Shown here: positions 7,380 to 29,152 of the stretch, piece after piece
Layout: the number at the start of each line of letters is the position of its first letter
Numbering within the stretch: the first letter of the stretch is position 1
Assembly: GCA_963698025.1 (NCBI GenBank)
Contig: OY969112.1
Span: 1,341,242-1,405,241 of the forward strand
Source of the DNA: an uncultured Acidobacteriota bacterium
GTDB taxonomy: Bacteria > Acidobacteriota > Thermoanaerobaculia > Multivoradales > UBA5704
Reading direction: 5' to 3'
Length of the DNA stretch: 64,000 nucleotides
Position numbers and translations under genes: made by a program
The notes under the pieces: generated by a model
What the model was told of the DNA's origin: nothing
Database searches by the model: none
What the model saw: the letters and a program-made list of their open reading frames with translations, nothing else

Positions 7380-8704
7380 GCCCGCCGTCCCGCCACGTCC
7401 GCGATCAGGATCCGGTCCCATTCCGGAACGACCGCCGTGGTGGCGGCGAGCAGGGCGAGGCCGACCCCCGAGGAGCCGGTGAGGAAGCCAGGATCGGAGC
7501 GCCAGGCGAGCTCCTCCCCCTCCCCCACCACCCACATCTCGAAGCCGCCCACTCCCACACCCGGCTTGCGGTAGGCCAGGGTCCGCTCGATCCAGGCGAG
7601 GGCGGCGTTCCGGAAAGTCGGCTCGCCGGTCGCCTGGTAGAACCGGTTGTAGAGATGGGCCGCGCCGGCCGCGCCATGGCAGATCCCGGCGTCGACGACC
7701 CCGGACTTCTCCGGCTCGCGCGAGACGGTGGCGCGGGCGACCTCGACGGCCTCGCGCTCCCACCCCGCCTCCCCCACCGCGCGCGCCGCCACCAGCAGGG
7801 AGGCGGCGATGCCAAGGTCGCCGTAGCACCAGGCGAGGCGGCTGGAGCGCGGCTCGACGCCGGATGCCACGTTGTAAGAGAAGGTCGATTCCGACCCCGC
7901 CGGCAGCTTCTGGGCGAGCAGCCAGGCGACGGCGCCGTCCAGGAGCTCGCGAGCGTCGACGCCGGCGGCGCAGCTTTCAGCCAGGATGCCGATCACTCCG
8001 GGCATGCCGTGGGCGACGCCGAGATTGAAGTTCCCCTCCGGAAAGGTCTCCAGCTCGCTCTCCATCATGAGGTCGGGCCCGGTGCGCCAGGTCACCCCCT
8101 CGGGCCGGCGCTCCGCGATCTCCGCGAGGCGGGCCACCACCTTCTCCAGGCACTCCCTGCCGCCGGGCCGGGGGAGACGCTCCAGGGCGTAGACCCCGAA
8201 GCCCACGAGCCCCGAGATGAGGTCGTAGTGCCCCCGCCAGGGGGAGAGGCCGAGGTGCTCGATGAGCGCCGCGGTGACCTCCTCGCCCGGGTCCTCCCCG
8301 TCGTCCTCGAACAGCCTCCCGCGCAGGTGCTCCAGCGTCCAGGCGACGCCCGAGAAGCCGCTGTAGAGGCCGGGCGGGGCCTGTACGACCCCGGTGGTGT
8401 CGATCGCCCGCTCGAGCAGCGCCATCGCGAGGTCGTCGTACCCCTCACCCGGCCGGACCGGGTCGAGATAGGTGAAGAAGGCGGCCACCCCCGCGTCCCC
8501 ACCGGCCAGCGAGGGCCCCCGGCGGTGCCAGCCCGGCGACTCCGGACGCGGCTCGTCGAGGGATTTGCGGAGATCGGCGGCGATGTCATCGACCACGCGC
8601 AGGGCTTCGTCCGCGGCTTCGGCGGTCAGGATCGGGGACCAGTTGGGGATCGTCTCGGCGCTCATCAGGCGCGAGAGTCTATCGCGCCCGGAGCCGCTGC
8701 CCAA
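7376..8704 (-). CDS. lanC: LanC-like lanthionine cyclase
   Basis: LanC zinc-ligand motifs WCYGDLG and CHGAAGAAH, plus GxxG repeats (SGFSGVAW, HGMPGV). Convergent with lanB, with stop codons overlapping. An alternative start is M14 at 8665. Confidence 0.85.
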   Translation of the reverse strand: MGSGSGRDRLSRLMSAETIPNWSPILTAEAADEALRVVDDIAADLRKSLDEPRPESPGWHRRGPSLAGGDAGVAAFFTYLDPVRPGEGYDDLAMALLERAIDTTGVVQAPPGLYSGFSGVAWTLEHLRGRLFEDDGEDPGEEVTAALIEHLGLSPWRGHYDLISGLVGFGVYALERLPRPGGRECLEKVVARLAEIAERRPEGVTWRTGPDLMMESELETFPEGNFNLGVAHGMPGVIGILAESCAAGVDARELLDGAVAWLLAQKLPAGSESTFSYNVASGVEPRSSRLAWCYGDLGIAASLLVAARAVGEAGWEREAVEVARATVSREPEKSGVVDAGICHGAAGAAHLYNRFYQATGEPTFRNAALAWIERTLAYRKPGVGVGGFEMWVVGEGEELAWRSDPGFLTGSSGVGLALLAATTAVVPEWDRILIADVAGRRA

Positions 8705-8757
8705 ACCGGCCCGCCGACAGCCGCCCAGGTGCCGGGCCAGCTGATATCCTTGCCACC

Positions 8758-9936
8758 ATGCGCCGGCTCCATCTGACGACCGGCGGTGAGAGCCACGGAC
8801 CCGGCCTCACCGCGATCCTTACCGGACTGCCCGCCGGACTGCGGGTGGACTTCGACCTCCTGGCCCGCGACCTCGCCCGCCGCCAGCACGGCTTCGGCCG
8901 CGGGCGCCGCATGCAGATCGAGAAGGACGCCGCCGAGGTGCGCGGCGGCGTGCGCGGGGGCGAGACCCTGGGCTCCCCCCTGGTGCTCTGGATCCAGAAC
9001 CGCGATTACGTGAGCTGGGAGCGGATCATGGGCCCCGAGACGGTCGATCCCCATCTGGTGGAGACGCGCCGCCTCAGGTCGCCGCGGCCGGGGCACACCG
9101 ACCTCGCGGGGGGGATCAAGTACCAGCGGCGGGACCTGCGCGACATCCTCGAGCGCGCCTCCGCCCGCGAGACCACCGCCCGCGTGGCGGCCGGTGCCTT
9201 CGCCCGCATGCTGCTGGCGGAATTCGGGATCGAGATCCGCAGCGGCGTCCGCTCCCTGGGGCCGATCGGCGCCGACGCGCCGGTCCCCGCCTGGGCGGAT
9301 CTCCTCAACGTGGACGAGACCTCGCCGTTGCGGGCGATCGACCGCGCGCTGGAGCCCGAGATGGTCCGCCTGGTCGAGCGGGCCAAGGAGGAGGGGGACA
9401 CGCTAGGGGGCGCGGTGACGGTGATCGCCCGCGGGGTCCCCCCGGGGCTCGGCTCGCACGTGCAGTGGGACGAGAAGCTCGACGGTCGCCTCGCCCAGGC
9501 GATCCTCTCGATCCACGCCGTCAAGGCGGTGGAGATCGGCGCCGGCGTCACCGCCTCCCAGGGGTTCGGCAGCGCCGCCCACGACGCCATCGAGAGGACG
9601 GAGGACGGCCGCTGGGTCCGCCCCACCAACCGTGCCGGCGGCCTCGAAGGGGGGGTCACCAACGGCGAGGACGTGGTGATCACCGCCTACAAGAAGCCGA
9701 TCGCCACCCTCCGCAAGGGGCTGCCGAGCGTCGACCTCGACACCCTGGAGGCGCGCACCTCGCAGTACGAGCGCAGCGACGTCACCGCGCTCCCCGCCGC
9801 CGGCGTCATCGCCGAGTCCATGGTTGCCCTGGTGCTGGCCGACGCCCTGCTGGAGAAGCTGGGGGGGGACTCGATGGTGGAGGTTCGTGCGCACTGGGAG
9901 GCCACGGCCGCGCAGCAGCGGGCGTGGCCGGGGTGA
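8758..9936 (+). CDS. aroC: Chorismate synthase
   Basis: N-terminus TTGGESHGPGL and overall AroC-like sequence; 392 aa. Confidence 0.95.
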   Translation: MRRLHLTTGGESHGPGLTAILTGLPAGLRVDFDLLARDLARRQHGFGRGRRMQIEKDAAEVRGGVRGGETLGSPLVLWIQNRDYVSWERIMGPETVDPHLVETRRLRSPRPGHTDLAGGIKYQRRDLRDILERASARETTARVAAGAFARMLLAEFGIEIRSGVRSLGPIGADAPVPAWADLLNVDETSPLRAIDRALEPEMVRLVERAKEEGDTLGGAVTVIARGVPPGLGSHVQWDEKLDGRLAQAILSIHAVKAVEIGAGVTASQGFGSAAHDAIERTEDGRWVRPTNRAGGLEGGVTNGEDVVITAYKKPIATLRKGLPSVDLDTLEARTSQYERSDVTALPAAGVIAESMVALVLADALLEKLGGDSMVEVRAHWEATAAQQRAWPG

Positions 9937-16405: not shown

Positions 16406-17356
16406 ATGCCAAGTGAATTCCCCACGTCCTCAACGCTGCCGTTGAAGTCGCTTCGCCCAGGTGCGTGCGTTCTCGGCGCCTTGGCTCTCTTTGCCTGCCT
16501 TCAGGTTCGGGCCCAAGCTTCTTGTCTAACGCCCTCAGCGCTCGCGGGTGCCTGGACCGAACGGGGAACCGCAAATCAAGTCCGCTTCGAGGCCGCCCGG
16601 GTCATCCTTCGGGAGAAGGGCTTATTGAGGACGGCGACGATCTTGCGCAGTGAGCCGTGCGAGATCGTGGTGCGCGATCAAGGGGTGCTTGCTACCTGGA
16701 CGCTCAAAGCGAACGAGAGCAGCGCACCCGAGTTCGACCAAGGGAAGGGCGCCGTCCAGCTTGATCGCATGCCCGAGATCCCATCTTCACTTGATATCAA
16801 TCCTTTCCCGCTTCCTCCTCCGGGGCCGGTCCCCGCCGAAAAGATGAAGGAGATCGCGGCGGAGCTCGTGGCTCGAGAAGCAAGAGATCAGGCGGCCTTC
16901 AAGTCCGACAAGGATAAGCGGCCCGCGATCCTCGACGACAATATCCGCTATCTTAGGGAAGTAGTAGCGCGCTACGGCTGGATCGATATCCCGCGGTTCG
17001 GCAAAGCGGCGGCGGCGGCGGCGATTCTCATTGTCAAGCACTCGTCTGATCTGCCTCTTCTCCAGGATGCTCTTCCCGTGGCGGAAAGGGATGCCAAGGA
17101 AAACGGCGGCGGCAAGGAGTTGGTGTCCATCCTGGTTGATGAGGTGCTCATAAGCACGGGGCACAAACAGAAGTACGGCACTCAGATTGCCGACGACGAG
17201 CACGGCAAACCCTACGTCATTCCCGTAGAGGATCTTGGGAAGGTCGAAGAGTACCGCAAGGAGCTCGGTATTCTCACCTGGAAGGACTACCTCAAGAAAG
17301 CAAGCGATTTCCTCTACGACGGTCAGACCATACGGATTCCTGGGCCAGAAGAGTGA
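16406..17356 (+). CDS. Secreted or lipo-protein of unknown function (DUF6624-like C-terminal half)
   Basis: An N-terminal signal or lipobox-like segment (GALALFAC). The C-terminal region IVKHSSDLPLLQDALP...HKQKYGTQI resembles DUF6624-type proteins. It is the first gene of the lower-G+C island. Confidence 0.55.
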   Translation: MPSEFPTSSTLPLKSLRPGACVLGALALFACLQVRAQASCLTPSALAGAWTERGTANQVRFEAARVILREKGLLRTATILRSEPCEIVVRDQGVLATWTLKANESSAPEFDQGKGAVQLDRMPEIPSSLDINPFPLPPPGPVPAEKMKEIAAELVAREARDQAAFKSDKDKRPAILDDNIRYLREVVARYGWIDIPRFGKAAAAAAILIVKHSSDLPLLQDALPVAERDAKENGGGKELVSILVDEVLISTGHKQKYGTQIADDEHGKPYVIPVEDLGKVEEYRKELGILTWKDYLKKASDFLYDGQTIRIPGPEE

Positions 17357-17405
17357 ACGACGACTGGGCGCTGATGCCCAGCTTCGCGTTACAGAAAGGG
17401 AACCA

Positions 17406-17564
17406 ATGCACAAGACTAGTCAGAAGGAACGGGTGCTCGCGCGGGTTCTGGCGGCGGAGCTTGCGAAGGTTCATGGTGGCGGTGATCCGGTTTCAACCAC
17501 GGTCGGGCCTTCGGGAAGAAAAGACATCACGGATGCCAATAACGGTGATAGCCTGGAATACTGA
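17406..17564 (+). CDS. Graspetide (omega-ester/amide RiPP) precursor peptide, 52 aa
   Basis: MHKTSQKERVLARVLAAELAKVHGGGDPVSTTVGPSGRKDITDANNGDSLEY. An RBS-like AAAGGGAA lies upstream. It has a helical leader with an LARVL motif and a Thr/Ser/Lys plus Asp/Glu-rich C-terminal core. It lies directly upstream of the ATP-grasp maturase. Confidence 0.6.
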   Translation: MHKTSQKERVLARVLAAELAKVHGGGDPVSTTVGPSGRKDITDANNGDSLEY

Positions 17565-17578
17565 GACCTGAGAGCTTG

Positions 17579-17610
17579 GCGGGAGGTCGCGTGCCTAAAC
17601 GACCTCCCGC
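17579..17610 (+). promoter_or_regulatory. Intercistronic stem-loop between precursor and maturase (putative attenuator or processing site)
   Basis: Perfect 11-bp stem gcgggaggtcg / cgacctcccgc with a 10-nt loop and no U-tract. Confidence 0.5.
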
Positions 17611-17631
17611 TCCGATCCCAAGGGAGCCGGT

Positions 17632-18738
17632 GTGCCAAAAAGAATTCTTATTCTTACCGAGGCGGACGATATTCATGCGATGGCCGTCATGGAGGCGCTT
17701 CTCCGAAAGGGCGCGGAGGTGACCTCATGGGCCACCTCGGACTTTCCCTCCCGATCGGATGAAAGCGTCCTATATCGCGCCAATGGAACAAAGAACCTGC
17801 GTATTCGCAGCGCCGAGCTCGATCTCGAGAATCCCGTCTTTGATGTCGTTTGGCGTCGTCGGCCTGCCTTTGTCCTTGATCCAGACGCGCTCCATCCCGC
17901 CGACCTGAAGTTCGCCGAGAGTGAGTGCGGCATGTTCCGGCGGTCGCTTCTACGCCTTATTGCTCCACGTGCATTTTGGGTAAATCCTCCTGACGGTGCC
18001 GCCCTCGCGGGAAGCAAGCTCCTTCAGCATGAGACGGCGCGAACGATCGGCTTAACTATGCCCGAAACCCTCTTCACGAACAGCCCTACCGAGATCCGCA
18101 ATTTTCTTGGGCGCGGCAGACAGGTCATCTATAAGCCTCTCTCCGGCGGCGGCTGGATGAATAAGGACAGTCGATTTTTCTCGTATACCGCTCTCCTCTC
18201 GGAAGCTGACCTGGTTACCGATGATGTCTTGCGACAAACTCCAGGCATTTTCCAGGAGCTCGTGCCCAAGGCGTACGAGCTCCGGGTCACCGTAATGGGC
18301 AAACACGTTCTTGCCGCAAGAGTGCTCTCGCAAGAGACCGAGAGAGGAAGACTTGATTGGAGGCAGTCCTACGACGAGCTGCAATTTAGGCCAGACAGCC
18401 TACCGCCTTCCGTTGAAGACCAGTGCCGCGCGCTCCTCGATGCGTTGGGACTGGTCTTTGGCTGCTTCGATTTCATCGTCACGCCGGAGGGCGAGCATGT
18501 CTTTCTTGAAGTGAATGAGATGGGACAATTTCTTTTCATCGAGCGATATTGCGGCCTGCCGCTCCTCGATGCGTTTTCCGAATTTTTACTCCAGGGAAGG
18601 GTGGACTTCGACTGGAGCGCCGATAGTGTCCAGGTGCGCTACGGGGACCCGGAGTTTGAAAGGGCCGCCCTTGCGCGTTGGGCTGCGTTTCAATCCTCCC
18701 ACTGCTCGGTTCCCGAATCTCTTGCCGATGAGGCTTGA
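17632..18738 (+). CDS. ATP-grasp ribosomal peptide maturase (MdnB/MdnC, MvdC/D-like)
   Basis: GTG start preceded by AGGGAG. The N-terminus ILILTEADDIHAMAVMEAL and the VVWRRRP segment resemble microviridin-type ATP-grasp ligases. It has an ATP-grasp fold layout; 368 aa. Confidence 0.8.
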   Translation: MPKRILILTEADDIHAMAVMEALLRKGAEVTSWATSDFPSRSDESVLYRANGTKNLRIRSAELDLENPVFDVVWRRRPAFVLDPDALHPADLKFAESECGMFRRSLLRLIAPRAFWVNPPDGAALAGSKLLQHETARTIGLTMPETLFTNSPTEIRNFLGRGRQVIYKPLSGGGWMNKDSRFFSYTALLSEADLVTDDVLRQTPGIFQELVPKAYELRVTVMGKHVLAARVLSQETERGRLDWRQSYDELQFRPDSLPPSVEDQCRALLDALGLVFGCFDFIVTPEGEHVFLEVNEMGQFLFIERYCGLPLLDAFSEFLLQGRVDFDWSADSVQVRYGDPEFERAALARWAAFQSSHCSVPESLADEA

Positions 18739-18798
18739 ACGAAGACCGACCGGGTGTCCGTAGTCAATCCAGCAATCGTCGGATCGATCCTTCAGCCA

Positions 18799-20265
18799 TT
18801 AGGTTCCTTTGCCAGCGGGAGGGACCGAGCGCCTAACCTTCTCGATCTCGGCTACGACCTGCCGTGCCAGTCCAGCGGTTGCGTTCTCCTCGCGGGCGGC
18901 GTCAAAGAAGAGCCTCAGCGCGGCCAGGGCTTCGCGGTGAACCCCTTTAGCCTTGAAAATCCATCCCATGGCGACCGCCAGCTCCTTCACCTCCACCGTG
19001 CGTCCGGCCTCCAGCCAGAGCACGGCCAACTCGAGCGAGGAGAGCGCCGCGTCATAGGCAAGCTCGCGGGCCGTAAAGTCCCTCCGCACCTGCTCCAGGC
19101 CGGCGATCGCCACCTCGAATCGACCCTCTCCTGCTGCGATCCTGGATTCCAGCCAGATCACGCGCGTGAGGTCCAGCTCGTTGCCCTGCTGGACGGCCCA
19201 CTCACGCACCTTGGGCATCAGCTCCGCAGCCTCCGCGTGGCGCGAGAGGAGATAGAGGTTGTTCGCAGTATCGAAACGGAGGCAAAGGATGAGGCGCGGG
19301 TCGCCCGAATCTTCAACGAAAGGAGCTGCCTCCGTTAAGGCCGCTAGAGCGTTCTCGGAGTCGCCCATCTGTTCAAAGACATTGCCCATTTTCAGGAGGA
19401 TACGCGCCGACGCCTCCTGATGATCTCGACTGGCTGCGCGGGCTCGATCGAGCAGTTCAAGGGCCGCCAAAAACCGGAGTTGGGCGCGCCGCAGGGAAGC
19501 TTCGAGAGAGAACAGGTGCCACTCGGCGAGTAGCTCGGGGTGGGAGTCGGCTCCGGCCCGCCAGAGATCCCAAGCTTGGACGAACGCCTTTTCGGCGCCG
19601 CCAAGGTCGTTGGCGACCCGCCGGGCGTTAGCGAGGTATGCCCAGCAATATCCCTTCAAGCGCGAGCGCCAGCTCTCCTCCCCCTGAACCTGCTCTGCGA
19701 TGGAGAGAGCGAGCCCGGCAAGCTCCAAAGCCTCCGCGGCGTTGTGGGCTGCCCGCTTTACGCTCGCCAAACACACCTGGACGGCAAGGGCCCAATTCCC
19801 GGAGCGGGGAGAGAGCTGGATGAGCCGGCTACGAAACCGGACCGGGTGCCGTTCGAGGGCTTCCCAGACCTTTGCCGCTTCCCGGAGCTCTTGATCCGAA
19901 GAAGGCCGGGGCATCTCCGCGGTGTGGGTTTCATTCAAATAGGCTGTCACCGCCAGGAGAACCGGTTCCAGGATTGCGAGGTCGAGCGCGCTGCCGGCCG
20001 GGGCCGCATTAGGCCGAGCCGCCGAGGCGAGGACCGAAGTGTAGGACTGGCGGAGATGGACGACCAGGGGCCATGCGATCCGCGCGACCTTCGCCATGCG
20101 CCGCAGGGCTTCTTCGGAGGGTGCAAGGTGGCCCAACTCGTAGCGGGAGACTTCGGCCTGATTGACTCTCGACGCCTTCCCAAATTGCGCCTGGGTCATC
20201 TGGGCATGGGATCGCAAAAAGATCACCACCTGCCTCAGAACCGCCGGATCACCCCGCTTCGCCAT
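18799..20265 (-). CDS. XRE-family HTH plus TPR-repeat regulator (paralog 1)
   Basis: An N-terminal HTH (MTQAQFGKASRVNQAEVSRYELG) and a long TPR-like helical repeat C-terminal region. The C-terminal ~290 aa are near-identical to the 20678-22180 product. Confidence 0.8.
   Translation of the reverse strand: MAKRGDPAVLRQVVIFLRSHAQMTQAQFGKASRVNQAEVSRYELGHLAPSEEALRRMAKVARIAWPLVVHLRQSYTSVLASAARPNAAPAGSALDLAILEPVLLAVTAYLNETHTAEMPRPSSDQELREAAKVWEALERHPVRFRSRLIQLSPRSGNWALAVQVCLASVKRAAHNAAEALELAGLALSIAEQVQGEESWRSRLKGYCWAYLANARRVANDLGGAEKAFVQAWDLWRAGADSHPELLAEWHLFSLEASLRRAQLRFLAALELLDRARAASRDHQEASARILLKMGNVFEQMGDSENALAALTEAAPFVEDSGDPRLILCLRFDTANNLYLLSRHAEAAELMPKVREWAVQQGNELDLTRVIWLESRIAAGEGRFEVAIAGLEQVRRDFTARELAYDAALSSLELAVLWLEAGRTVEVKELAVAMGWIFKAKGVHREALAALRLFFDAAREENATAGLARQVVAEIEKVRRSVPPAGKGT
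18827..19680. repeat. Copy A of a ~0.85-kb direct repeat (3' halves of the two HTH-TPR genes)
   Basis: Collinear with 20715-21568 at a constant offset of 1888 bp at both checked ends. About nine in ten positions are identical by eye. Confidence 0.85.
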
Positions 20266-20375
20266 CCTTTACCCCCCGAGATGGACATAGGTCATGTGGA
20301 TTTGGTCCACTTTCCCTGGAGAGCCGCCCCCACGGCCAAGGAGGCCGCGGTGGAGCGCCCTCCAAGGGAGCCGCC

Positions 20376-20672
20376 ATGCTCACCGTCTCGCTGCGTCGCA
20401 AAACCCACTTCCTCCTTCTAGTCGCGGTCATGGTCGCCACTCCATGGGCCTCAGCTGCCAGCACAAATCCCAGCCCACGGTCAGTGCAAGCCGTGGAACC
20501 GGCCTCGCTGGAGCTCTTCAGTCGCATCTGGGATTTCTTCCGAAGCGCCGGCAGCAAGGCAGGCTGCCGCATCGACCCGAACGGCCTCTGCGCCGACCGA
20601 CCAGATCAGAACCCTCCCCCTCTGACGAAAGAAGGTTGCCGCCTCGACCCGGACGGCCGCTGCCTTTTCTAG
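20376..20672 (+). CDS. Small secreted peptide (98 aa) with two GCR[IL]DP[ND]G[LR]C repeats
   Basis: A good RBS (AAGGGAG, 5-nt spacer), a Sec signal peptide with ASA|AS, high-G+C third-position codon bias, and two 10-aa Cys-bounded repeats at 20562-20591 and 20634-20663. Confidence 0.6.
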   Translation: MLTVSLRRKTHFLLLVAVMVATPWASAASTNPSPRSVQAVEPASLELFSRIWDFFRSAGSKAGCRIDPNGLCADRPDQNPPPLTKEGCRLDPDGRCLF

Positions 20673-20677
20673 CCCCT

Positions 20678-22180
20678 TCACTCTCGGTCTCTCCCTTTGC
20701 TGGCAAGAGAGGCCGAGCGCCTCACCTTCTCGATCTCGGTTACGACCTGCCGTGCTAGCCCAGCGGTTGCGCTCTCCTGGCGGGCGGCGTGAGAGAAGAG
20801 CCTCAGCGCGGCCAGGGCTTCGCGGTGAATCCCCTCGGCCCTGAAGATCCAGCCCATGGCGACCGCCAGCTCCTTCACCTCCGCCGTCCGCCCGGCCTCC
20901 AACCAGAGCACGGCCAAGTCGAGGGAGGAGAGCGCCGCATCATAGGCAAGCTCGCGAGTCGTAAACTCCTTTCGCACCTGCTCCAGGCCGGCGATCGCTT
21001 CCTCGGTTCGACCCGCTCCCGCCGCGACCCTGGATTCCAACCAGACCACGCGGGTCAGGTCCAGCTCGTTGCCCTGCTGGACGGCCCACTCGCGCACCTT
21101 GGGCAGCAGCTCCGCAGCCTCCGCATAGCGCGAGAGAAGGTAGAGGTTGTTCGCGGTGTCAAAGCGGAGACAAAGGATGAGGCGCGGATTGCCCGAATCC
21201 TCGACGAAAGGAGCGGCCTGCCTCAAAGCTGCTAAAGCGTTCTCGGAGTCACCCATCTGTTCAAGAACATTGCCTTTTTTCAGTAGGATGCGCGCGGACG
21301 CCGCCTGATAATCTTGACTGGCTTCTCGGGCTCGATCGAGCAGCTTCAGAGCCGCTGAAAACCGATGTTGGGCTCGCCGAAGGGAAGCTTCGAGGGAGAG
21401 TAGGCGCCACTCGGCAAGCAGCCCGGGGTCCGAGCCGTTTCCTGCGCGCCAGAGGTCCCACGCTCGACCGAACGCCTCGTTGGCGCCGGCGAGGTCGTTG
21501 GCGACCCGGCGGGCGTTGGCCACGTGGGCCCAACAGTAGCCCTTGAGGCGCGAATGCCAGCTCTCCGCGTCCGGAATCCGCTCGGCGACCGACAGGGCGA
21601 GCTCCGCCAACTCCAGAGCCTCGTCGGGCCTGTTCACCGTTTGCTTCAGGCTCTCCTCGCAGAGTCGAGCGGCCAACGCCCAATTCCAGTAGTCGGGGAA
21701 CGCCTCGACCAGGGCGCTACGCTCCTTGCGGGTGCCAGCCATCAACCCGCGAAACAGCTCCTCGGCTTCCTGTCTGGCGGCTTCCGCCTTCTCCTGCTTC
21801 CCGCGGCGGATCAGCTCGCTCCGGACTTCCTCGGCAGCGACATGCCCTGCCGTCCAACCGGCGGCCATGGTGGCGCGGTCGATCGCCCGGTGCTCCTCCC
21901 GGGAGAGGGTGATCGGCGAGGAGGGCTCGTCAAGAGGCTCCTGGAAGATCAGACGGTGGGCGAAGAGGAGAACGTCCACGGCTTCCGAGGGATAGCCCAA
22001 AGGTTCGACGAGGGATTCCAGCTGCTCCCGGGTCAGCGGTTTGGCCCCCCGTTCATAATGCGAGATCAGGGATTCATCCGCGAGCCCCAGAGCGCGGGCC
22101 AGTCGACTCTTGGACCAAGCCGCCGCGGAGCGCAGGTAGGCCAGCGCGAGTCCGAAGGGCGAGAGGGGTCGTTCCAGCAA
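20678..22180 (-). CDS. XRE-family HTH plus TPR-repeat regulator (paralog 2)
   Basis: An N-terminal HTH (WSKSRLARALGLADESLISHYERG) and a TPR-like C-terminal region, paralogous to the 18799-20265 product. Confidence 0.8.
   Translation of the reverse strand: MLERPLSPFGLALAYLRSAAAWSKSRLARALGLADESLISHYERGAKPLTREQLESLVEPLGYPSEAVDVLLFAHRLIFQEPLDEPSSPITLSREEHRAIDRATMAAGWTAGHVAAEEVRSELIRRGKQEKAEAARQEAEELFRGLMAGTRKERSALVEAFPDYWNWALAARLCEESLKQTVNRPDEALELAELALSVAERIPDAESWHSRLKGYCWAHVANARRVANDLAGANEAFGRAWDLWRAGNGSDPGLLAEWRLLSLEASLRRAQHRFSAALKLLDRAREASQDYQAASARILLKKGNVLEQMGDSENALAALRQAAPFVEDSGNPRLILCLRFDTANNLYLLSRYAEAAELLPKVREWAVQQGNELDLTRVVWLESRVAAGAGRTEEAIAGLEQVRKEFTTRELAYDAALSSLDLAVLWLEAGRTAEVKELAVAMGWIFRAEGIHREALAALRLFSHAARQESATAGLARQVVTEIEKVRRSASLASKGRDRE
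20715..21568. repeat. Copy B of the ~0.85-kb direct repeat
   Basis: See 18827-19680. Confidence 0.85.
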
Positions 22181-22325
22181 TCCATGCCTCCTCGTGCAGA
22201 TGCCTACAAAGCTAGGTTGCCGCCAAGCCGCTTTCCGTGACAGGCGAACGCGACTTTTTTCTAGTTGACACGCGCTATGACCCTCTCACCATACCTCAAG
22301 AGATTCTAAGTTCCTTGGGCACGGG

Positions 22326-22583
22326 TTGGCGCAACTTCTCCTACCCTGCCTCTCCATGCAGATTCGATGTGAACGGGAAGCAGCTTTAGGCAGTCGATAC
22401 CATCCTCCTACAGACCAGTTGGAGCGCTTCCTGCGGGGTGAGCTTCCACGTCACGAAGTGCGCATCGTCGTTCGCCACCTTTTGACCCGCTGCGCGGAGT
22501 GCGTTTCGGTGACCCGCCGGGTCTTGGAGCTCGGGGACCGGGCACCCGTCGGCCTGGGAAGCCGGCAAAGGGGGGCACGGTGA
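22326..22583 (+). CDS. Small protein with zf-HC2-like (anti-sigma-type) motif
   Basis: LERFLRGELPRHEVRIVVRHLLTRCAECV fits the H-x3-C-x2-C putative zinc-finger of anti-sigma factors. No TM segment. The start is uncertain (TTG at 22326 or ATG at 22356). It is divergent from paralog 2. Confidence 0.4.
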   Translation: MAQLLLPCLSMQIRCEREAALGSRYHPPTDQLERFLRGELPRHEVRIVVRHLLTRCAECVSVTRRVLELGDRAPVGLGSRQRGAR

Positions 22584-22864
22584 CGGAGCCGCCGGAAATC
22601 CTTGTGGCCAAGGCGAGAGAGCAGGTTCGGAGGATCTTGGAGCACCTGGAGGAGATCCGTTGGCAGCTCCTCGGCATCACGCTCAGCCTCCCCGAGCCGG
22701 TGGCGGAGCAGGTCCGGCTTTTGGCCGTGGCCGATGAAATGGACGCGACGACCGAGTTGCGGACGGTCATCCATTGCGTCCTGGAGGACTGCATTCGTCC
22801 GGCGGTCGAGGATCTTCAGGGGGCCTTATCGAACAAGGTTTCGGAATCCGACCGTAGAGGGTGA
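22580..22864 (+). CDS. Hypothetical protein, translationally coupled to the preceding ORF
   Basis: The GTG start overlaps the upstream stop (GTGA). The 94-aa helical acidic protein has no recognisable family. Confidence 0.35.
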   Translation: MTEPPEILVAKAREQVRRILEHLEEIRWQLLGITLSLPEPVAEQVRLLAVADEMDATTELRTVIHCVLEDCIRPAVEDLQGALSNKVSESDRRG

Positions 22865-23092
22865 GCCCGCCGAGCATGAGACCGAAGTTTCCACCTGTGC
22901 TTGGGCCCGGGGTCTCAACAGAGAGGGCGCGCGGCGTCTACCCCACGCCTTGGGCGCTGACTCGGTTTGCGGTCCGCTCGCGAGGGAGGATGGGAGGGGC
23001 CGGGAGAAGAAGCCCGGGATGATGAGGGCCCCGCTTGCCATCCCGCCCCATAGAGTGTAGAAAGCCTCCGGCCCACCGCGGGCCGAACCCCT

Positions 23093-23869
23093 ATGCTCGA
23101 AATCTACCGCTATCGCGACCTCATCTTCGCCCTCGTGGCCCGGGAGCTGAAAGTGCGCTACCGGCGCTCGGCCATCGGCTTCACCTGGACCATGCTGCAG
23201 CCGCTGCTGATGATGCTGGTGCTCCAGGTGGTCTTCAACTCGCTGTTCAAGTTCAGGCTGCCCGAGGGGACCAACTATCCGGTCTACGCGCTCTCCGGCA
23301 TCCTGTTCTGGAACTTCTTCAGCCAGAGCATCCTCGCCTCGATGAACAGCCTGCGGGCGAACGCGGCCATCCTGCGCAAGCTGCCGGTGCCCAAGGAGGT
23401 CTTCCCGCTGGCGACCGTCATCTCCGGGGTCATCAACCTCCTCCTGGCGGTGGTGCCGCTGCTGCTCATCATGCTGATGACCGGCCAGCCGGTCGGGCCC
23501 TCGCTGCTGTTCCTGCCGGTCTCGATCCTGCTCGCCGCCCTGTTCACCCTCGGCGCCGGGCTGCTGCTCTCGCCGCTGTCGGTCTTCTTCACCGACGTCG
23601 TGGAGATGATCGGCGTGCTGCTCTCGATCCTCATGTACCTGACGCCGATCTTCTACCCGATGAAGATCCTGGAGAGCTCCCGCTACCTGCCGCTGGTGCG
23701 CTACAACCCGGTGCGGTCGATCCTCGAGGTCTTCCGCGATCCGATCTTCCTCGGCAAGGTCCCACCGCTGACCCATCTCGGCGTCTCCGCCGGCATCGCG
23801 CTGATGGCGCTCCTGATCGGCGGCTACGCCTTCCGGCGCAGCAGCGACCGCATCCCCTTCTACATCTGA
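23093..23869 (+). CDS. ABC-2 type exporter permease (Wzm/TagG/KpsM-like)
   Basis: A 258-aa protein with about 6 TM segments and the family-typical N-terminus YRDLIFALVARELKVRYRRSAIGFTWTMLQP. Confidence 0.85.
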   Translation: MLEIYRYRDLIFALVARELKVRYRRSAIGFTWTMLQPLLMMLVLQVVFNSLFKFRLPEGTNYPVYALSGILFWNFFSQSILASMNSLRANAAILRKLPVPKEVFPLATVISGVINLLLAVVPLLLIMLMTGQPVGPSLLFLPVSILLAALFTLGAGLLLSPLSVFFTDVVEMIGVLLSILMYLTPIFYPMKILESSRYLPLVRYNPVRSILEVFRDPIFLGKVPPLTHLGVSAGIALMALLIGGYAFRRSSDRIPFYI

Positions 23870-24651
23870 TGGAGGACCTCAGCATCCGCCTGGAGGCGGT
23901 CTCCCTCTGCTACCGGCTGGCCAAGCAGCGGGTCCCCTCCATCAAGGAATACGCCATCCACTTCCTGCGCGGGTCGCTCTCCTACGAGCAGCTGTGGGCG
24001 CTGCGCGACATCGACCTCACCGTGCGGCGCGGCGAGACGCTGGGGATCATCGGCCGCAACGGCGCCGGCAAGAGCACGATGCTCAAGGTGATCTCCAAGG
24101 TCCTCAAGCCCACGAAGGGGAACGCCCGGATCAGCGGCAGGGTGGCGCCCATCCTGGAGCTCGGCAGCGGCTTCGACTATGAGCTGACCGGCCTCGAGAA
24201 CGTCTACCTGAACGCCCTCCTGCTCGGCCACACCAAGCGGGATATCGCGGCGAAGGTCGACGAGATCGTCGACTTCAGCGGCCTCGGCGACTTCATCCGC
24301 TCGCCGCTGCGCAACTACTCCTCCGGCATGCAGGCCCGCCTCGGCTTCTCGATCGCCACCGCCTGGGTGCCGGACATCCTGATCCTCGACGAGGTGCTCT
24401 CGGTGGGGGACGCCACCTTCACCGGCCGCTGCGAGGAGCGCATCCAGAGCTTCCACGATTCCGGCGCGACCGTGCTCATCGTCTCCCACGCCGTCCAGGC
24501 CATCACCAAGAACTGCACGCGCTGCATCTGGCTCGACGACGGCCAGATGAAGGCGGACGGCAAGACCGAAGAGGTCGTCAATCTCTACCTGCGCGAGCAC
24601 GGCACCGAGCCCGGCCAGCACGCCGGCGGCCGGGCCCCCACCGCTCCCTGA
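23869..24651 (+). CDS. ABC exporter ATP-binding protein (Wzt/TagH/KpsT-like, no C-terminal glycan-binding domain)
   Basis: The ATG overlaps the permease stop by one base (TGATG; TGA at 23867-23869). It has Walker A GRNGAGKST, the signature YSSGMQARL, Walker B ILILDE and the TagH-like ILELGSGF motif. Confidence 0.9.
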   Translation: MEDLSIRLEAVSLCYRLAKQRVPSIKEYAIHFLRGSLSYEQLWALRDIDLTVRRGETLGIIGRNGAGKSTMLKVISKVLKPTKGNARISGRVAPILELGSGFDYELTGLENVYLNALLLGHTKRDIAAKVDEIVDFSGLGDFIRSPLRNYSSGMQARLGFSIATAWVPDILILDEVLSVGDATFTGRCEERIQSFHDSGATVLIVSHAVQAITKNCTRCIWLDDGQMKADGKTEEVVNLYLREHGTEPGQHAGGRAPTAP

Positions 24652-25567: not shown

Positions 25568-25647
25568 CAGCTCGCCGGGTGGAGAAGGGACCTGCCGCCC
25601 GGAGCCGTGTTCGCCGTGGTCCGCAACCGAATGCCAAGGAGAATGCA

Positions 25648-25869
25648 ATGAAGAAACTCGACGTGGCCCGTGCCTGGCGTGACGAGGAGTACCGCAACAG
25701 TCTCACCGACGAGGAGCGGGCCAGCCTGCCCGAGAACCCCGCCGGCATGGCAACGGTGGACGACTCCGCCCTGCGGAGCATCACCGGTGGCGCGCGGAGC
25801 TCGATCCCCTACCCCGATTGCACCACCTTCGTGGGCTCCTGCGTCAAGCCGGGCCAGCAGTGCCCGTAG
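25648..25869 (+). CDS. lanA: Class II lanthipeptide precursor LanA (mersacidin/lichenicidin-type leader, GG cleavage motif)
   Basis: AAGGAG RBS. The 48-aa leader is MKKLDVARAWRDEEYRNSLTDEERASLPENPAGMATVDDSALRSITGG. The 25-aa core is ARSSIPYPDCTTFVGSCVKPGQQCP (3 Cys, 5 Ser/Thr). It lies directly upstream of lanM. Confidence 0.8.
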   Translation: MKKLDVARAWRDEEYRNSLTDEERASLPENPAGMATVDDSALRSITGGARSSIPYPDCTTFVGSCVKPGQQCP

Positions 25870-25893
25870 GCTGAGCCTGACCTTCTGACTCCG

Positions 25894-25921
25894 GGCGGGC
25901 GGGCCTGGCGGTCCGCCCGCC
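25894..25921 (+). promoter_or_regulatory. Stem-loop between lanA and lanM (putative attenuator or mRNA-stabilising hairpin)
   Basis: A 12-bp GC-rich stem (one G-U pair) with tetraloop tggc, followed by a weak cgcttt. Confidence 0.5.
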
Positions 25922-25957
25922 GCTTTCGACATCCTTCGCGGAAGGGTCTGACGCCGA

Positions 25958-28900
25958 ATGACGGACGAGATCTTCGATGCCCCGGAGTGGTTCGAGGCCC
26001 TGACGCTCGCCGAGCGCGCCGCCCTCCTGGACGCCGGGAGCGGCGAGGCCCCGCCTGCCGAGCGGCGGGAGCGCTCGGCACGGAAGGCGACCCGCTGGAG
26101 AAACGAGTCGGACCTGCTCGACGACGAGGTCTTCGCCGAGCGTCTCGCTCTCGACGGCCTGACGCCGGACCGCTTCCTGCGCGTCCTGGCCGAGCCGGCC
26201 ACCGGCCTGCGCGAGCGGGCGAAGGGGCGCCCCGGCTGGTTGCAGACCCTGGCGCGGGCTTTCTCCCAGCCCCCTCCCCCCCTCCCCTCCGGCCTCGCCG
26301 GCGAGGGGAGCCTCGGCGTGCTCGAGCTGCTGCGCCCCCTCATCGCCGAGTCTCACGCCCGTCTCCTGGAAGGCTTGCGGCGGATCGCCTCCGGGGCGCC
26401 GGGGAGCCTCGAGCCCGAAGCGATCGCCACCGCCCTCCTCGAGACCCTGGTCCGGCGGCTCCGCTGGGCGAGCGAGAGGGCTCTCGCGCTGGAGCTTCAC
26501 GTCAGCCGTCTCCAGGGGGAGCTCCAGGGGGAGACCCCGGAGGAACGGTTCCGGAGCTTCGCCGGCATCCTGCGCCAGCCCGCCGCCGCCCTGGAGATCC
26601 TCCGGCGCTACCCGGTGCTGGCCCGCGACGCCTGCCGCCACGCGGAGCAGTGGGTCGAGACGAGCCTGGAGATGATGCAGCGCTTCGCCGAAGACCGCGG
26701 CGCAATCGTCCGCGAGCTCGCCGCCGGCGCGGAGCCGGGGCCGGTAGTGGCCGTCCAGAGCGGGCTCAGCGACCGTCACGGCGGCGGACGATCGGTGGCG
26801 ATCCTCTCCTTTGCCTCGGGGCTGCGGACCGTCTACAAGCCCAAGCCCCTGGCCGTCGACCGGCGGTTCCAGGCGCTCGTCGCCTGGCTCAACGAGCGGG
26901 GAGGCGCGCCGCCGCTGCGCCGTCTCGCGGTTCTCGACCGCGGCGGCTACGGCTGGGTGGAGCACGTCGCCGCCCGCCCCTGCGAGACGCCGGAGGAGGC
27001 GGAGCGCTTCCACGAGCGGCAGGGGGCCTGGGTGGCCCTGTTCTATGCCCTGGAGGCCACCGATTTCCACCACGAGAACCTGATCGCCGAGGGCGAGCAC
27101 CCGGTGCCGATCGACCTCGAAACCCTCTTTCAGCCGGCCCGCACCGCCCCGGCCGCCAGCGGCCCCGGATACCTGCCCACGGCCCAGACGGTGCTGAACA
27201 GCGGCCTTCTCCCCAGACGGTTCGGGGACACGGCTGCCGACGAAGGGCTCGATCTGAGCGGCATGGGAGCCGTGGGGGGACAGAGGCTCGCGGTGAGGCG
27301 CATGACCGGCGAGGGGACGGACCACATGCGCTGGGCCCTGCACGAGACGGAGCTGGCCGCCGGCCCCAACCTTCCGACCCTGCGGGGTGAGCCGCTGGTG
27401 CTGTGGGAGCACGGCGAGTCCGTCCGGCGCGGCTTCCGCTCGATGTACCGGCTGCTCTGCCGCCATCGCGAGGAGCTCCTCGCCGCCGGAGGGCCGCTGT
27501 CGCCGTTCGCCGGCCTGCCGATCCGCACCCTGCTGCGCGGCACCGGCATCTACGCCCACCTGCTCCACGTGGGCCACCACCCCGACTACCTGCAGAGCGC
27601 CCTCGACCGCGATCGCCTCTATGACCGGTTGTGGCTGGACGCGGTGGCCTACGCGCCGTTCCGGCGGGCCGTGCACGGCGAGCGGCAGGACCTGTCCGCC
27701 GGCGACATTCCCCTCTGGGGGAGCCTGACCACCTCGACCGACCTCCTCCACCCTGGAGGGTGCCGGGTCGCGGATTTCTTCGCGACCTCCGGGCTGGAGC
27801 TCGTCCGAGCGCGATTGCGGGCGATGAGCGAAGACGACCTGGAACGGCAGAGCTGGCTCGTCGAAGCCTCGATCGAGGCCACCCGCGCTCTCGACGAGCG
27901 CTGGACCTGGCCGTCCACGAGCCTGCCGGAGGCCGGCCCCGCCGAGCCCGGGCGCTTCCTGGCCGCGGCCCGGCGGATCGGCGACCGCGTGGCGCGGCTG
28001 GCCGTCGAACAGGGGGGGATCGTGACCTGGTTCCAGCTCGACCTGCGGCCCGGAGGGTGGTTCCTGGAGCCGATGGCGGTCGACCTTTACACCGGCCTCC
28101 CCGGTCTCGCCCTCTTCTTCGCCCACCTCGGACGCCTCTCGGGGGAGGAGCGCTACGAGCGTCTGGCCCGGCTCGCCCTGGATACGGCCCGGCGGCGGAT
28201 CGCGGCCGGGCCCGGAGCGCTGGCCCACCCCGGCGCCTTCAGCGGCTGGGGAGGGATCGTCTACACCCTCGCCCACCTCGGCTCCCTCTGGCAGGAGGCC
28301 GGGCTGCTCGATGAGGCGGAAGCGCTGGCGACCGGGATGCCCGGCGTCGAGGAGGACGAGGCGTTCGACCTCGTCGCCGGCTCCGCGGGGGCTCTGGCCG
28401 CGATCCTGGCGCTGCATCGCCGCCGCCCCTCCCGCGCCCTCCTGGACGCCGCGGTCCGGTGCGGCGAGCGCCTCCTCGCCGGCGCCGTCGTCGCCGAGCG
28501 CGGCCACGGCTGGCCCCCCTTCGGGGAGGTGAGCCGCGTGCCGCTCACCGGCTTCAGCCACGGTGTGGCCGGCGTCTCCTGGGCCCTGGCCTGGCTCGCC
28601 CACGCCTCGGGCCAGGAACGGTTCCGCGAGGCGGCGCGGGGCGCCCTCCGGTACGAGCGGAGCTGGTTCGACGCCGGGCGCGACAACTGGCCCGACCTGC
28701 GGGAGAGTCACAAGGCTCCTGAAGGACGGGACTTCCTTTACGCGTGGTGCCACGGCGCGCCGGGGATCGGGCTCGGGCGCGCCGGCACCCTGCCGTACCT
28801 GGAAGATCCGGAGATGCTCCCGGAGATCCGGGCCGCCGTGCGCTCCACCCGGGCCGAGGGGTTCGGCGGCAGCCAGTGCCTCTGCCACGGCGACCTGGGG

Positions 28901-29152
28901 AACCTGGAGCTCGTGCGCGAGGCCGGCCGGGCGCTGGGGGACCCGGAGCTGGCGGCCGAGGCCGACCGGCTGGCCGCCCGCATCCTGGTGCGGATCGAGA
29001 ACGGAGGCCTGCGCTGCGGCACCAGCGCCAAAACCGACAGCCTCGGCCTCATGGTCGGCCTCGCGGGGATCGGCTACGGCCTGCTCCGCGCCGCCTGGCC
29101 GGACCGCGTGCCTTCCGTTCTGCTGCTGGAGACGCCGGCTCCAGGGAGCTGA
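25958..29152 (+). CDS. lanM: Class II lanthipeptide synthetase LanM (DUF4135 dehydratase domain plus LanC-like cyclase domain)
   Basis: A 1064-aa protein with the kinase-like core YKPKPL...FHHENLIAEGEHPVPIDLE. The C-terminal LanC-like domain has WCHGAPGIG and CLCHGDLGNLE zinc-ligand motifs. Confidence 0.9.
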   Translation: MTDEIFDAPEWFEALTLAERAALLDAGSGEAPPAERRERSARKATRWRNESDLLDDEVFAERLALDGLTPDRFLRVLAEPATGLRERAKGRPGWLQTLARAFSQPPPPLPSGLAGEGSLGVLELLRPLIAESHARLLEGLRRIASGAPGSLEPEAIATALLETLVRRLRWASERALALELHVSRLQGELQGETPEERFRSFAGILRQPAAALEILRRYPVLARDACRHAEQWVETSLEMMQRFAEDRGAIVRELAAGAEPGPVVAVQSGLSDRHGGGRSVAILSFASGLRTVYKPKPLAVDRRFQALVAWLNERGGAPPLRRLAVLDRGGYGWVEHVAARPCETPEEAERFHERQGAWVALFYALEATDFHHENLIAEGEHPVPIDLETLFQPARTAPAASGPGYLPTAQTVLNSGLLPRRFGDTAADEGLDLSGMGAVGGQRLAVRRMTGEGTDHMRWALHETELAAGPNLPTLRGEPLVLWEHGESVRRGFRSMYRLLCRHREELLAAGGPLSPFAGLPIRTLLRGTGIYAHLLHVGHHPDYLQSALDRDRLYDRLWLDAVAYAPFRRAVHGERQDLSAGDIPLWGSLTTSTDLLHPGGCRVADFFATSGLELVRARLRAMSEDDLERQSWLVEASIEATRALDERWTWPSTSLPEAGPAEPGRFLAAARRIGDRVARLAVEQGGIVTWFQLDLRPGGWFLEPMAVDLYTGLPGLALFFAHLGRLSGEERYERLARLALDTARRRIAAGPGALAHPGAFSGWGGIVYTLAHLGSLWQEAGLLDEAEALATGMPGVEEDEAFDLVAGSAGALAAILALHRRRPSRALLDAAVRCGERLLAGAVVAERGHGWPPFGEVSRVPLTGFSHGVAGVSWALAWLAHASGQERFREAARGALRYERSWFDAGRDNWPDLRESHKAPEGRDFLYAWCHGAPGIGLGRAGTLPYLEDPEMLPEIRAAVRSTRAEGFGGSQCLCHGDLGNLELVREAGRALGDPELAAEADRLAARILVRIENGGLRCGTSAKTDSLGLMVGLAGIGYGLLRAAWPDRVPSVLLLETPAPGS

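Follow-up and report, generated by a model that had tools for sequence, protein, structure and literature searches.

To our knowledge, peptide quorum sensing through cytoplasmic tetratricopeptide repeat (TPR) receptors is regarded as a Gram-positive speciality. In the RRNPP systems of Firmicutes and of their phages and plasmids (Rap-Phr, NprR-NprX, PlcR-PapR, PrgX, Rgg-SHP and AimR-AimP) a small gene for a Sec-exported pro-peptide adjoins the gene of a cytoplasmic TPR receptor, which mostly carries an XRE-type helix-turn-helix (HTH) domain. Their signature has been given as a pro-peptide of 10-100 aa that is exported by Sec, a receptor of 250-500 aa that contains TPRs, and a gap of -50 to 191 bp between the two genes (Bernard et al. 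2023, PMC10075063). The locus described here lies in a 64,000 nt stretch of DNA (the window) from an uncultured Acidobacteriota bacterium (Thermoanaerobaculia; Multivoradales; UBA5704; assembly GCA_963698025.1, contig OY969112.1, positions 1,341,242-1,405,241 of the forward strand). It consists of two HTH-TPR regulator genes, reg1 and reg2, on either side of a gene for a small secreted repeat peptide, together with a pair of short genes, divergent from reg2, for a ZAS-like protein and a protein here called B. The initial annotation of this DNA had listed the two regulators, the peptide open reading frame (ORF) and a palindrome, all of which were found again in place, and had proposed that they form an RRNPP-like peptide-sensing switch.

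The window locus is one copy of a large, tightly conserved, multi-copy cassette of soil Acidobacteria, and the family to which it belongs is undescribed. Related loci were retrieved as two sets, 47 centred on the peptide gene and taken from metagenomes, and 77 centred on the regulator and taken from Thermoanaerobaculia/Holophagales genomes. Among the regulators with enough 3' sequence, 70 of 72 had a convergent peptide gene at their 3' end; in 69 of these cases the gene encodes the repeat motif and lies within ~10-150 nt, and the remaining one was recognised by BLAST and by its leader RNA. In the reverse direction, a regulator was found 3' of the peptide gene in 29 of the 30 peptide-centred loci with enough 3' sequence. 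Regulator and peptide are thus paired far above chance. The proposal of a switch had been made to stand or fall with regulator-peptide synteny in related genomes, and on this point it is decisively upheld.

Read in the orientation of the reg2-type regulator, the conserved order is the B and ZAS-like genes, both pointing away from it, then the reg2-type HTH-TPR gene itself, the peptide gene facing it, and a gene for a second HTH protein in the same direction as the regulator. This second gene was found beyond the peptide gene in 55 of 59 evaluable loci, and its product belongs to a different HTH class, which is that of the window reg1. In 24 loci this protein has the full HTH-TPR build, and in 31 it is a short HTH protein or one of another build. 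The window thus represents the full two-receptor form of the cassette. One genome can carry several unlinked cassettes, for example four (CAWHUF01) or six (DATHUD01). Tandem arrays, in which every cassette has a peptide and a regulator of its own, occur in loci L003, L006, L064, L067, L075, L077, L081 and L122. The flanking genes vary between loci, so the cassette is self-contained. The family comprises ~2100 peptide clusters and >1100 receptor clusters and is confined, as sampled, to the Thermoanaerobaculia/Holophagales, soil bacteria of high abundance, most of them not in culture. In the literature searched there was no description of the cassette family, and nothing on peptide quorum sensing via cytoplasmic TPR receptors in Acidobacteriota. 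In L075 (5576-12809) three tandem cassettes, each of ZAS-like, reg2-type and peptide genes, have nearly identical peptides and leaders, which indicates recent local amplification.

All five elements of the RRNPP signature (PMC10075063) are found in the window: a pro-peptide of 98 aa, a Sec signal, receptors of 488 and 500 aa, TPRs, and gaps to the peptide gene of 5 nt (reg2, stop to stop, convergent) and 110 nt (reg1, divergent). The cassette also shares with RRNPP systems the presence of many paralogous cassettes per genome, intragenic duplications in the pro-peptides, a candidate mature part at the C-terminus and a small candidate target operon next to the receptor. It differs in being found in a diderm host and in having no detectable sequence homology to them; its repeat is a conserved I-D-P-x-G turn that is usually closed by a disulfide, where RRNPP peptides are short, variable and linear. 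Two receptors with different HTH domains and a homogenised sensor flank one peptide gene, which is convergent to the best-conserved receptor across a 5 nt gap, and the cassette further includes a structured leader RNA and the operon of the anti-sigma-like and B genes. As the signature is present but the search for homology was negative and the host lies outside the Firmicutes, the cassette is described here as RRNPP-like in its working, and not as a member of that family. The proposed RRNPP-like architecture holds for the signature, the conserved synteny and the modelled TPR superhelix; it does not extend to sequence homology with RRNPP receptors, and the part of the peptide as a TPR ligand would be by analogy. 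On this footing we favour the reading that the locus is an RRNPP-like peptide signalling cassette of the Thermoanaerobaculia/Holophagales, and put it at a little under even odds (roughly 0.45).

Features of the cassette in the window, with positions counted from its first nucleotide
Feature	Position	Strand	Basis
reg1-type regulator, 488 aa	18799-20265	-	ORF; Pfam; divergent from the peptide gene
Divergent promoter/operator region of reg1 and the peptide gene	20266-20303	.	nucleotide conservation, ~100 non-identical loci
Structured 5' leader RNA of the peptide mRNA	20304-20382	+	covariation; covariance model
Secreted repeat pro-peptide ORF, 98 aa	20376-20672	+	homologues; synteny
reg2-type regulator, 500 aa	20678-22180	-	ORF; Pfam; AF2; Foldseek
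Candidate promoter/operator box TGTCACGGAAAGCGGCTTGGCGGCAACCT, reg2/ZAS intergenic	22215-22243	-	recurrence in reg2 upstream regions; predicted only
ZAS-like small protein, 85 aa as listed, start uncertain	22326-22583	+	tblastn; invariant H/H/C/C; divergent from reg2
B protein, 94 aa, two-helix hairpin	22580-22864	+	source-genome gene call; homologues; AF2

The peptide ORF has the sequence AAGGGAG 5 nt ahead of its ATG. Its N-terminus, MLTVSLRRKTHFLLLVAVMVATPWASA followed by AS, runs from a charged n-region through a hydrophobic core to a cleavage site A-S-A, and is of the Sec type (aa 1-27, nt 20376-20456); on inspection, the n-region contains RRK, the core has 13 residues with a maximum hydropathy of 1.69, and the site reads A-S-A before A. 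This signal layout is conserved in 123 unique homologues. In the window peptide the variable pro-region ends in the amphipathic segment LELFSRIWDFFRS, and two loops follow, GCRIDPNGLC (aa 63-72, nt 20562-20591) with a Pro-rich spacer after it and GCRLDPDGRC (aa 87-96, nt 20634-20663) with a 2-aa tail. The G/C/D/P/G columns are invariant in 42 close homologues, and a profile search recovered 2137 cluster representatives at E<=1e-3. The 123 unique syntenic peptides have one layout, in which the Sec signal is followed by a variable region of 25-35 residues that closes on a conserved amphipathic L(D/E)LLxRxWSFLxxxW, and then by 1-4 copies of C-x-(I/L/V)-D-P-x-G-x-C, each after (K/D/E)-x-G and with Pro-rich spacers between them. 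Only three positions of the loop vary, and there are 146 distinct loops among 284. The last loop stands 2 aa from the C-terminus in 98 of the 123. Lengths in the family range from 74 to ~170 aa, so some peptides lie above the 100-aa RRNPP limit.

Cys-less variants are encoded in three loci (L101, 2759-3121, minus strand; L116, ~3264-3881, minus strand; L128, 7560-7874, minus strand), where the loops read GLGIDPHG, GLGIDPSG, GANIDPNGLA and GAKIDPTGHA. Signal peptide, pro-region, IDPxG repeats and leader RNA are all retained in these variants, which shows the invariant element to be the linear I-D-P-x-G turn and not the disulfide. The Cys pair is therefore not obligatory, and a Cys loop as the essential element was rejected. 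The peptide matched no Pfam, NCBIfam or PADLOC family, and the related loci share no gene for its modification or export or for immunity to it. Its layout is comparable to that of multi-copy pheromone precursors, such as yeast alpha-factor and the duplicated Phr peptides (PMC10075063), in the signal peptide, the pro-region and the tandem short units, and also in the short site, (K/D/E)-x-G, before each unit and in a copy number that varies among homologues. It differs from these in that the units within one acidobacterial precursor are not identical and that their processing is only predicted.

The two regulators are paralogous over their C-terminal 343 aa only (77% identity); the N-terminal ~150 aa cannot be aligned and belong to different HTH families. 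In Pfam searches HTH_31 and HTH_3 were above cut-off in both (HTH_31 at 29.6 bits and HTH_3 at 26.9 bits in reg1; HTH_31 at 34.6 bits in reg2), as was TPR_12 in reg1 (32.4 bits; cut-off 30.1). Profile matches to HipB, C.BclI and P22 C2 place these domains with the XRE type. In reg1 the XRE HTH domain takes up aa 1-144 and is of the class 'MAKRGD..VLRxVVIFLRS..MTQAQFGK', followed by the TPR sensor domain at aa 145-487; the same class is found at this position in 35 TPR-bearing homologues and elsewhere as an HTH-only protein of 123-129 aa. In reg2, HTH_31 at aa 9-68 and a long helix at aa 94-147 precede a TPR-like superhelix of ~16 helices (aa 151-488). There are >1100 homologues of reg2, 485-526 aa in length, and every named one comes from Thermoanaerobaculia or other Acidobacteriota. 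Neither regulator contains a segment hydrophobic enough to span a membrane. NCBIfam matches were at the level of the HTH only, and a sequence-profile search of the PDB likewise matched only HTH domains, with 5w4m/5w4n matched solely at aa 10-69 (E 0.7).

The AF2 model of reg2 (pLDDT 87.5, pTM 0.72) contains ~8 helix pairs in the TPR superhelix. In a Foldseek search its best matches were TPRs whose groove holds extended peptides; they included those of LGN/Pins (E ~6e-7), and the closest bacterial structures were Rap receptors, with the best superpositions to peptide-bound RapJ (4gyo, TM 0.65, rmsd 4.7-5.1) and RapF (4i9c). A comparison of the TPR domains with RRNPP receptors had been suggested; at the level of the modelled reg2 structure it finds peptide-bound RapJ and RapF, and at the level of sequence profiles it finds no match. 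The likeness between reg2 and Rap is one of fold, as judged from the model, and a shared origin is not thereby established.

The TPR domains of the two regulators of a locus do not evolve independently. Of the 31 loci with two regulators, 19 have a reg1-type and a reg2-type protein whose TPR domains are closer to one another than to any other, and elsewhere the domains cluster by type. Within-pair identity is as high as 98-99% in L055, L061, L066 and L111, compared with 77% in the window, and the HTH domains stay two classes throughout. In the window the TPR-coding regions form direct repeats on the minus strand (18805-19833 and 20681-21721), ~1.9 kb apart and with 82% DNA identity, which climbs from 0.59 to 0.92 toward the 3' end. 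As the TPR domains are 95-99% identical in many loci where the HTH domains are unrelated, recurrent gene conversion or concerted evolution is indicated, and by these sequence comparisons the sensor domain has been repeatedly homogenised within cassettes. The same domain is also found in other contexts. L115 has a 468-aa ORF, ending near 2330 on the reversed strand, in which a TPR domain of the regulator type is joined to an N-terminal ZAS-like domain, and in L001 the B gene is followed by the gene of a 400-aa TPR-only protein (8356-9558, plus strand). Besides standing alone, the sensor domain is thus combined with no fewer than three N-terminal types, two HTH classes and the ZAS-like one.

Between the promoter boxes and the start codon of the peptide gene lies a leader of ~75 nt that is conserved at the nucleotide level in ~100 non-identical loci. 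In the window it folds into a long imperfect hairpin with a minimum free energy of -40 kcal/mol and the apical loop AAGGA; at its base, the pyrimidine tract UUUCCCU pairs with the Shine-Dalgarno sequence AGGGAG. Covariation was assessed on a plain MAFFT alignment of 101 leaders, made with no structural information, by mapping the minimum free energy structure of the window onto its columns. The main helix of 17 bp was 83% paired, with compensatory changes at 14 pairs, and the covariation score was 0.199, compared with <=0.108 for slid controls and with 0 of 500 shuffles that reached 0.199. RNAalifold on the same alignment recovered only 4 apical pairs, owing to indels. A covariance model matched the window once, at 20304-20382 (89.9 bits), and in 610 kb of related loci it found one copy ahead of each peptide gene, on the peptide strand, and none elsewhere; the matches include loci outside the seed. 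Rfam gave no relevant match in 18000-23500 at E<=10. U-G wobbles are common in the helix, which points to an RNA of the peptide strand, and the alternative that the hairpin is a DNA palindrome was rejected on account of these abundant U-G pairs and of the strand-specific model matches. The apical loop (AAGGA here, mostly AUGGnGG) and the Shine-Dalgarno AGGGAG loosely resemble CsrA-type ANGGA sites, a likeness that we mention as speculation.

Upstream of the leader two boxes are conserved, GGACATAGGTyATG (20282-20295) and TTTGGTCCAC (20301-20310). The palindrome GTGGA-N5-TCCAC to which the initial annotation had drawn attention is indeed present in the window as GTGGATTTGGTCCAC at 20296-20310, though in most loci only its right half, TTTGGTCCAC, is conserved. 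As a conserved operator it was rejected, since the left half is not kept. In divergent loci the corresponding position is taken by clean palindromes, for instance GTGGATTAATCCAC. On the other side of the cassette, the box TGTCACGGAAAGCGGCTTGGCGGCAACCT lies ~35 nt before the start of reg2, and of the 82 non-redundant sequences inspected upstream of reg2, most have TGTCACGAAA-N9-11-CGGCAAC(C/T)T in this position. This TGTCAC...CGGCAAC box may resemble promoters of the extracytoplasmic function (ECF) type, which would fit the adjacent anti-sigma-like gene. A further conserved box, AAGTTAGAATCTCTT..GGTATGG, stands at ~22285-22315, upstream of the TGTCACGGAAAGCGGCTTGGCGGCAACCT box. A scan of 18600-23000 for sigma-70 promoters and terminators gave no promoter, and its terminators were not above those of shuffled sequences.

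Under the favoured signalling reading, the pro-peptide would be exported by Sec, oxidised and cut at its (K/D/E)-x-G sites to give one or several IDPxG loops of ~10-12 residues. These loops, or the C-terminal one alone, would accumulate outside the cell and then be re-imported to bind the concave face of both TPR domains, where conserved N/R/W/Y residues of the receptor may read the invariant I-D-P-x-G core and the three variable loop positions would confer specificity. For the TPR domains of the window, GCRLDPDGRCLF and GCRIDPNGLC would be candidate ligands. A liganded reg1-type protein would act at the peptide/reg1 promoter and thereby provide signal feedback, and a liganded reg2-type protein at the reg2/ZAS promoter, setting the level of the ZAS-like/B pair. 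This pair might relay the signal by sequestering a partner, for example a sigma factor encoded elsewhere, and the leader hairpin would block translation of the pro-peptide until some factor opens it.

A signalling role is suggested by the association of one receptor pair with each peptide across many paralogous cassettes, by a sensor domain common to three kinds of output domain (the two HTH classes, and the ZAS-like domain in L115), by the homogenisation of that sensor within cassettes, and by a precursor laid out like that of a pheromone, with a short linear core in 1-4 copies of which the last is C-terminal in 98 of 123. In particular, several or tandem cassettes that each have their own peptide and regulator form a receptor-signal pattern rather than an effector pattern. 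A number of points weigh against such a role. Synteny by itself would look alike for a ligand and for a product under regulation. In a diderm the signal would have to cross the outer membrane twice and would need import, and there is no transporter or importer in the conserved module. Some loops are identical between separate cassettes of a single genome (L053, L056), which, with only three variable positions, makes the loops poorly suited to orthogonal signalling. The regulators have no sequence homology to the known RRNPP receptors (Rap, Rgg/TIGR01716, NprR, PlcR, PrgX and AimR), TPR_12 in reg2 scores 23.2 bits and so falls under the Pfam cut-off (30.1), and in the Foldseek search the TM-scores are modest (0.5-0.65) and designed consensus TPRs and LGN score as well as Rap. 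Concerted evolution of direct repeats 2 kb apart could also be neutral gene conversion.

The alternative that fares best takes the peptide for an effector, secreted or periplasmic, for example a multi-headed protease inhibitor, a metal or calcium binder or an antimicrobial, whose production is controlled by the regulators and the leader on some other cue that is sensed by the TPRs. The 9-residue Cys-closed loops recall those of Bowman-Birk and SFTI inhibitors, and their rigid turn motif, disulfide and high conservation would suit such a role, but the Cys-less variants keep IDPxG and the loop scaffold is therefore not essential. Tandem repeats are typical of multi-headed binders, although their varying number and the C-terminal position of the last one resemble pheromone precursors. 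The elaborate transcriptional and translational control of the peptide gene by a divergent HTH gene, conserved operator boxes and a leader that would sequester the ribosome-binding site would fit an effector, yet each paralogous peptide has its own regulator pair, in up to six or more cassettes per genome, which is unusual for effectors. The module encodes no importer, and TPR folds are not peculiar to receptors of pheromones; on the other side, genes for immunity, export or modification are not conserved alongside the peptide. Taken together, we regard an effector as unlikely, while recognising it as a serious competitor to the signalling reading.

The two genes divergent from reg2 had been considered as possible targets in the initial annotation, and their place in the system is supported by homologues of both at that position in many loci. 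The ZAS-like protein has the core HP-x3-L-x-RFLRGEL-x9-VRHLLTRCAEC with invariant H26, H51, C56 and C59; tblastn found homologues in 49 loci, and at the module position in 37 of 72 evaluable loci. The B protein, which has a conserved C-terminal motif TELRTVIxCVLEDxIRPAxEDL, was found at the module position in 48 of 72. Both counts are lower bounds, as the sensitivity of tblastn is low for proteins this short. The GTG start of B overlaps the stop of the ZAS-like gene (GTGA, 22580-22583), so the two are apparently translationally coupled and a mechanically listed ORF of 121 aa (22499-22864) is really a protein of 94 aa; the gene call of the source genome is the same 94-aa protein (P0306). In L007, L034, L058, L074, L075, L083 and L101 the two are fused as one ORF. 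The AF2 model of B has helices at 5-36 and 47-92 (pTM 0.33), and its profile matched only designed coiled coils in the PDB. Pfam, NCBIfam and PADLOC had no family for B or for the ZAS-like protein of the window. Among the ZAS-like homologues, 7 of 18, though not the window protein, were matched weakly by the Pfam family zf-HC2 (best E 1.6e-4), and the best PDB match, also weak, was the N-terminus of the anti-sigma factor DdvA (8rlz, E 0.028). The 85-aa family is like the ZAS/zf-HC2 proteins (RsrA, ChrR and the N-terminus of Myxococcus DdvA) in its N-terminal HP, helix, RHLLxGCxxC and invariant His/His/Cys/Cys; it differs in its H-x4-C-x2-C spacing, where H-x3-C-x2-C is canonical, in lacking a transmembrane or sensor extension, and in having as its partner the 94-aa two-helix protein, sometimes fused to it, in place of an adjacent cognate ECF sigma gene.

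These properties bear on a second alternative, in which the ZAS-like/B pair is the core of the system and acts on a sigma factor or on the regulators by partner switching, the TPRs serve as protein scaffolds for the pair, and the peptide is an output or an envelope cue. The invariant His/His/Cys/Cys with the weak zf-HC2/DdvA similarity would fit this, as would the coupling of the two proteins and their fusion in seven loci, the ZAS-like N-terminus on the same TPR domain in L115, and the conserved TGTCAC...CGGCAAC box upstream of reg2, with its possible likeness to ECF promoters. No sigma factor gene was found among the called genes of L001-L005, in the window at 16-25 kb or at the conserved module positions, however, the His/Cys spacing is not the canonical one, and the pair was detected less often than the peptide (37 and 48 of 72 against 70 of 72), with the low sensitivity of tblastn for short proteins to be borne in mind. 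We consider partner switching at the core improbable. A selfish, mobile or defence element, such as an addiction or phage-defence switch spreading within genomes, is very improbable: it would account for the many copies per genome in varied contexts, the atypical G+C at third codon positions (GC3) in the window and, at domain level, the HTH domains like those of HipB/RstR/MqsA-type antitoxins or phage repressors, but the cassette is not accompanied by a conserved integrase, transposase, toxin or nuclease gene, terminal repeats were not seen, although no search aimed at them was made, PADLOC yielded only generic HTH_VI/RmrA matches to the HTH regions (E>=1.5e-4), and the G+C contrast is small in relatives.

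Cassettes with many paralogues are also known from Streptomyces, where the WhiJ/BldB(DUF397)/AbaA-like type combines an HTH_31-type XRE regulator with a small protein and an anti-sigma-like protein. These are a loose analogue of the cassette described here; they differ in that their small protein is cytoplasmic, their anti-sigma-like protein is of the HATPase kinase type, and they have no TPR sensor or leader RNA.

A bolder form of the signalling reading would make this the first RRNPP-type system outside the Firmicutes, with multi-copy disulfide-stapled I-D-P-x-G pheromones, two transcription factors sharing one sensor, an anti-sigma-like/B output and an RNA-gated pro-peptide mRNA, having evolved independently or diverged beyond sequence recognition. 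We put this forward tentatively, as a possibility against which we would still lean. If it were true, soil bacteria would have, in dozens of orthogonal cassettes per community, a major peptide language that has gone unrecognised. Should the peptides be signals at all, communication between cells of a major soil phylum could be put to a direct test, and the cassette would show how a diderm handles a peptide signal. Even if they are effectors, the cassette brings new families, namely the secreted repeat peptide, two HTH-TPR classes with a shared sensor, the ZAS-like/B pair and a leader RNA that is absent from Rfam. These component protein and RNA families are themselves undescribed. Four of these features had been missed by the initial annotation: that the 85-aa ORF is anti-sigma-like, that the TPR domains evolve in concert, that the HTH domains fall into two classes, and that the peptide mRNA has a leader RNA.

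The G+C content over 16-25 kb of the window is 0.58-0.67, compared with 0.70-0.73 in the flanks, and the GC3 of the module genes is 0.65-0.80, compared with 0.92 for neighbouring core genes. In relatives the G+C of the module is barely below that of its flanks (0.657 and 0.672). The earlier suggestion of horizontal acquisition is therefore plausible for the genome of the window, judged by composition (GC3 0.73-0.80 against 0.92). The peptide gene and reg2 converge at 20673-20677, with 5 nt between their stops, and the corresponding gap is 10-150 nt in relatives. There is no convincing terminator here (20673-20677 and 20638-20657), and the two transcripts probably overlap in antisense.

On the reg1 side of the cassette, the region 16406-18738 (plus strand) has the lowest G+C of the window (0.58). 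It contains genes for a secreted DUF6624 protein (16406-17356, plus strand), a possible Thr/Ser/Asp-rich precursor of 52 aa (17406-17564, plus strand; MHKTSQ...DANNGDSLEY) and an MvdD-like ATP-grasp protein (17632-18738, plus strand), the Pfam matches of which are weak and below cut-off. The pair of DUF6624 and ATP-grasp genes recurs beside the cassette only in L099. It had been suggested that the regulators control this adjacent graspetide operon; that idea is unsupported, as an ATP-grasp neighbour is found only in the window and L099, and it was rejected because the gene is not syntenic. Nor did the peptide show conserved co-occurrence with a neighbouring enzyme, as would be looked for in the precursor of a ribosomally synthesised and post-translationally modified peptide, and it has a Sec signal in place of the leader of such precursors. 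Directly beyond the B gene are genes for an ABC-2 permease (23093-23869, plus strand) and an ABC ATPase (~23860-24651, plus strand), which are not conserved with the cassette elsewhere. A LanM gene lies 5 kb from the module and has its own precursor: a class II lanthipeptide cluster occupies 25645-29152 (plus strand), in which a candidate precursor of 74 aa, MKKLDVARAWRDEEYRNSLTDEERASLPENPAGMATVDDSALRSITGG..CTTFVGSCVKPGQQCP, is followed by a LanM of 1064 aa (DUF4135, E 1e-115; LANC_like, E 1e-71).

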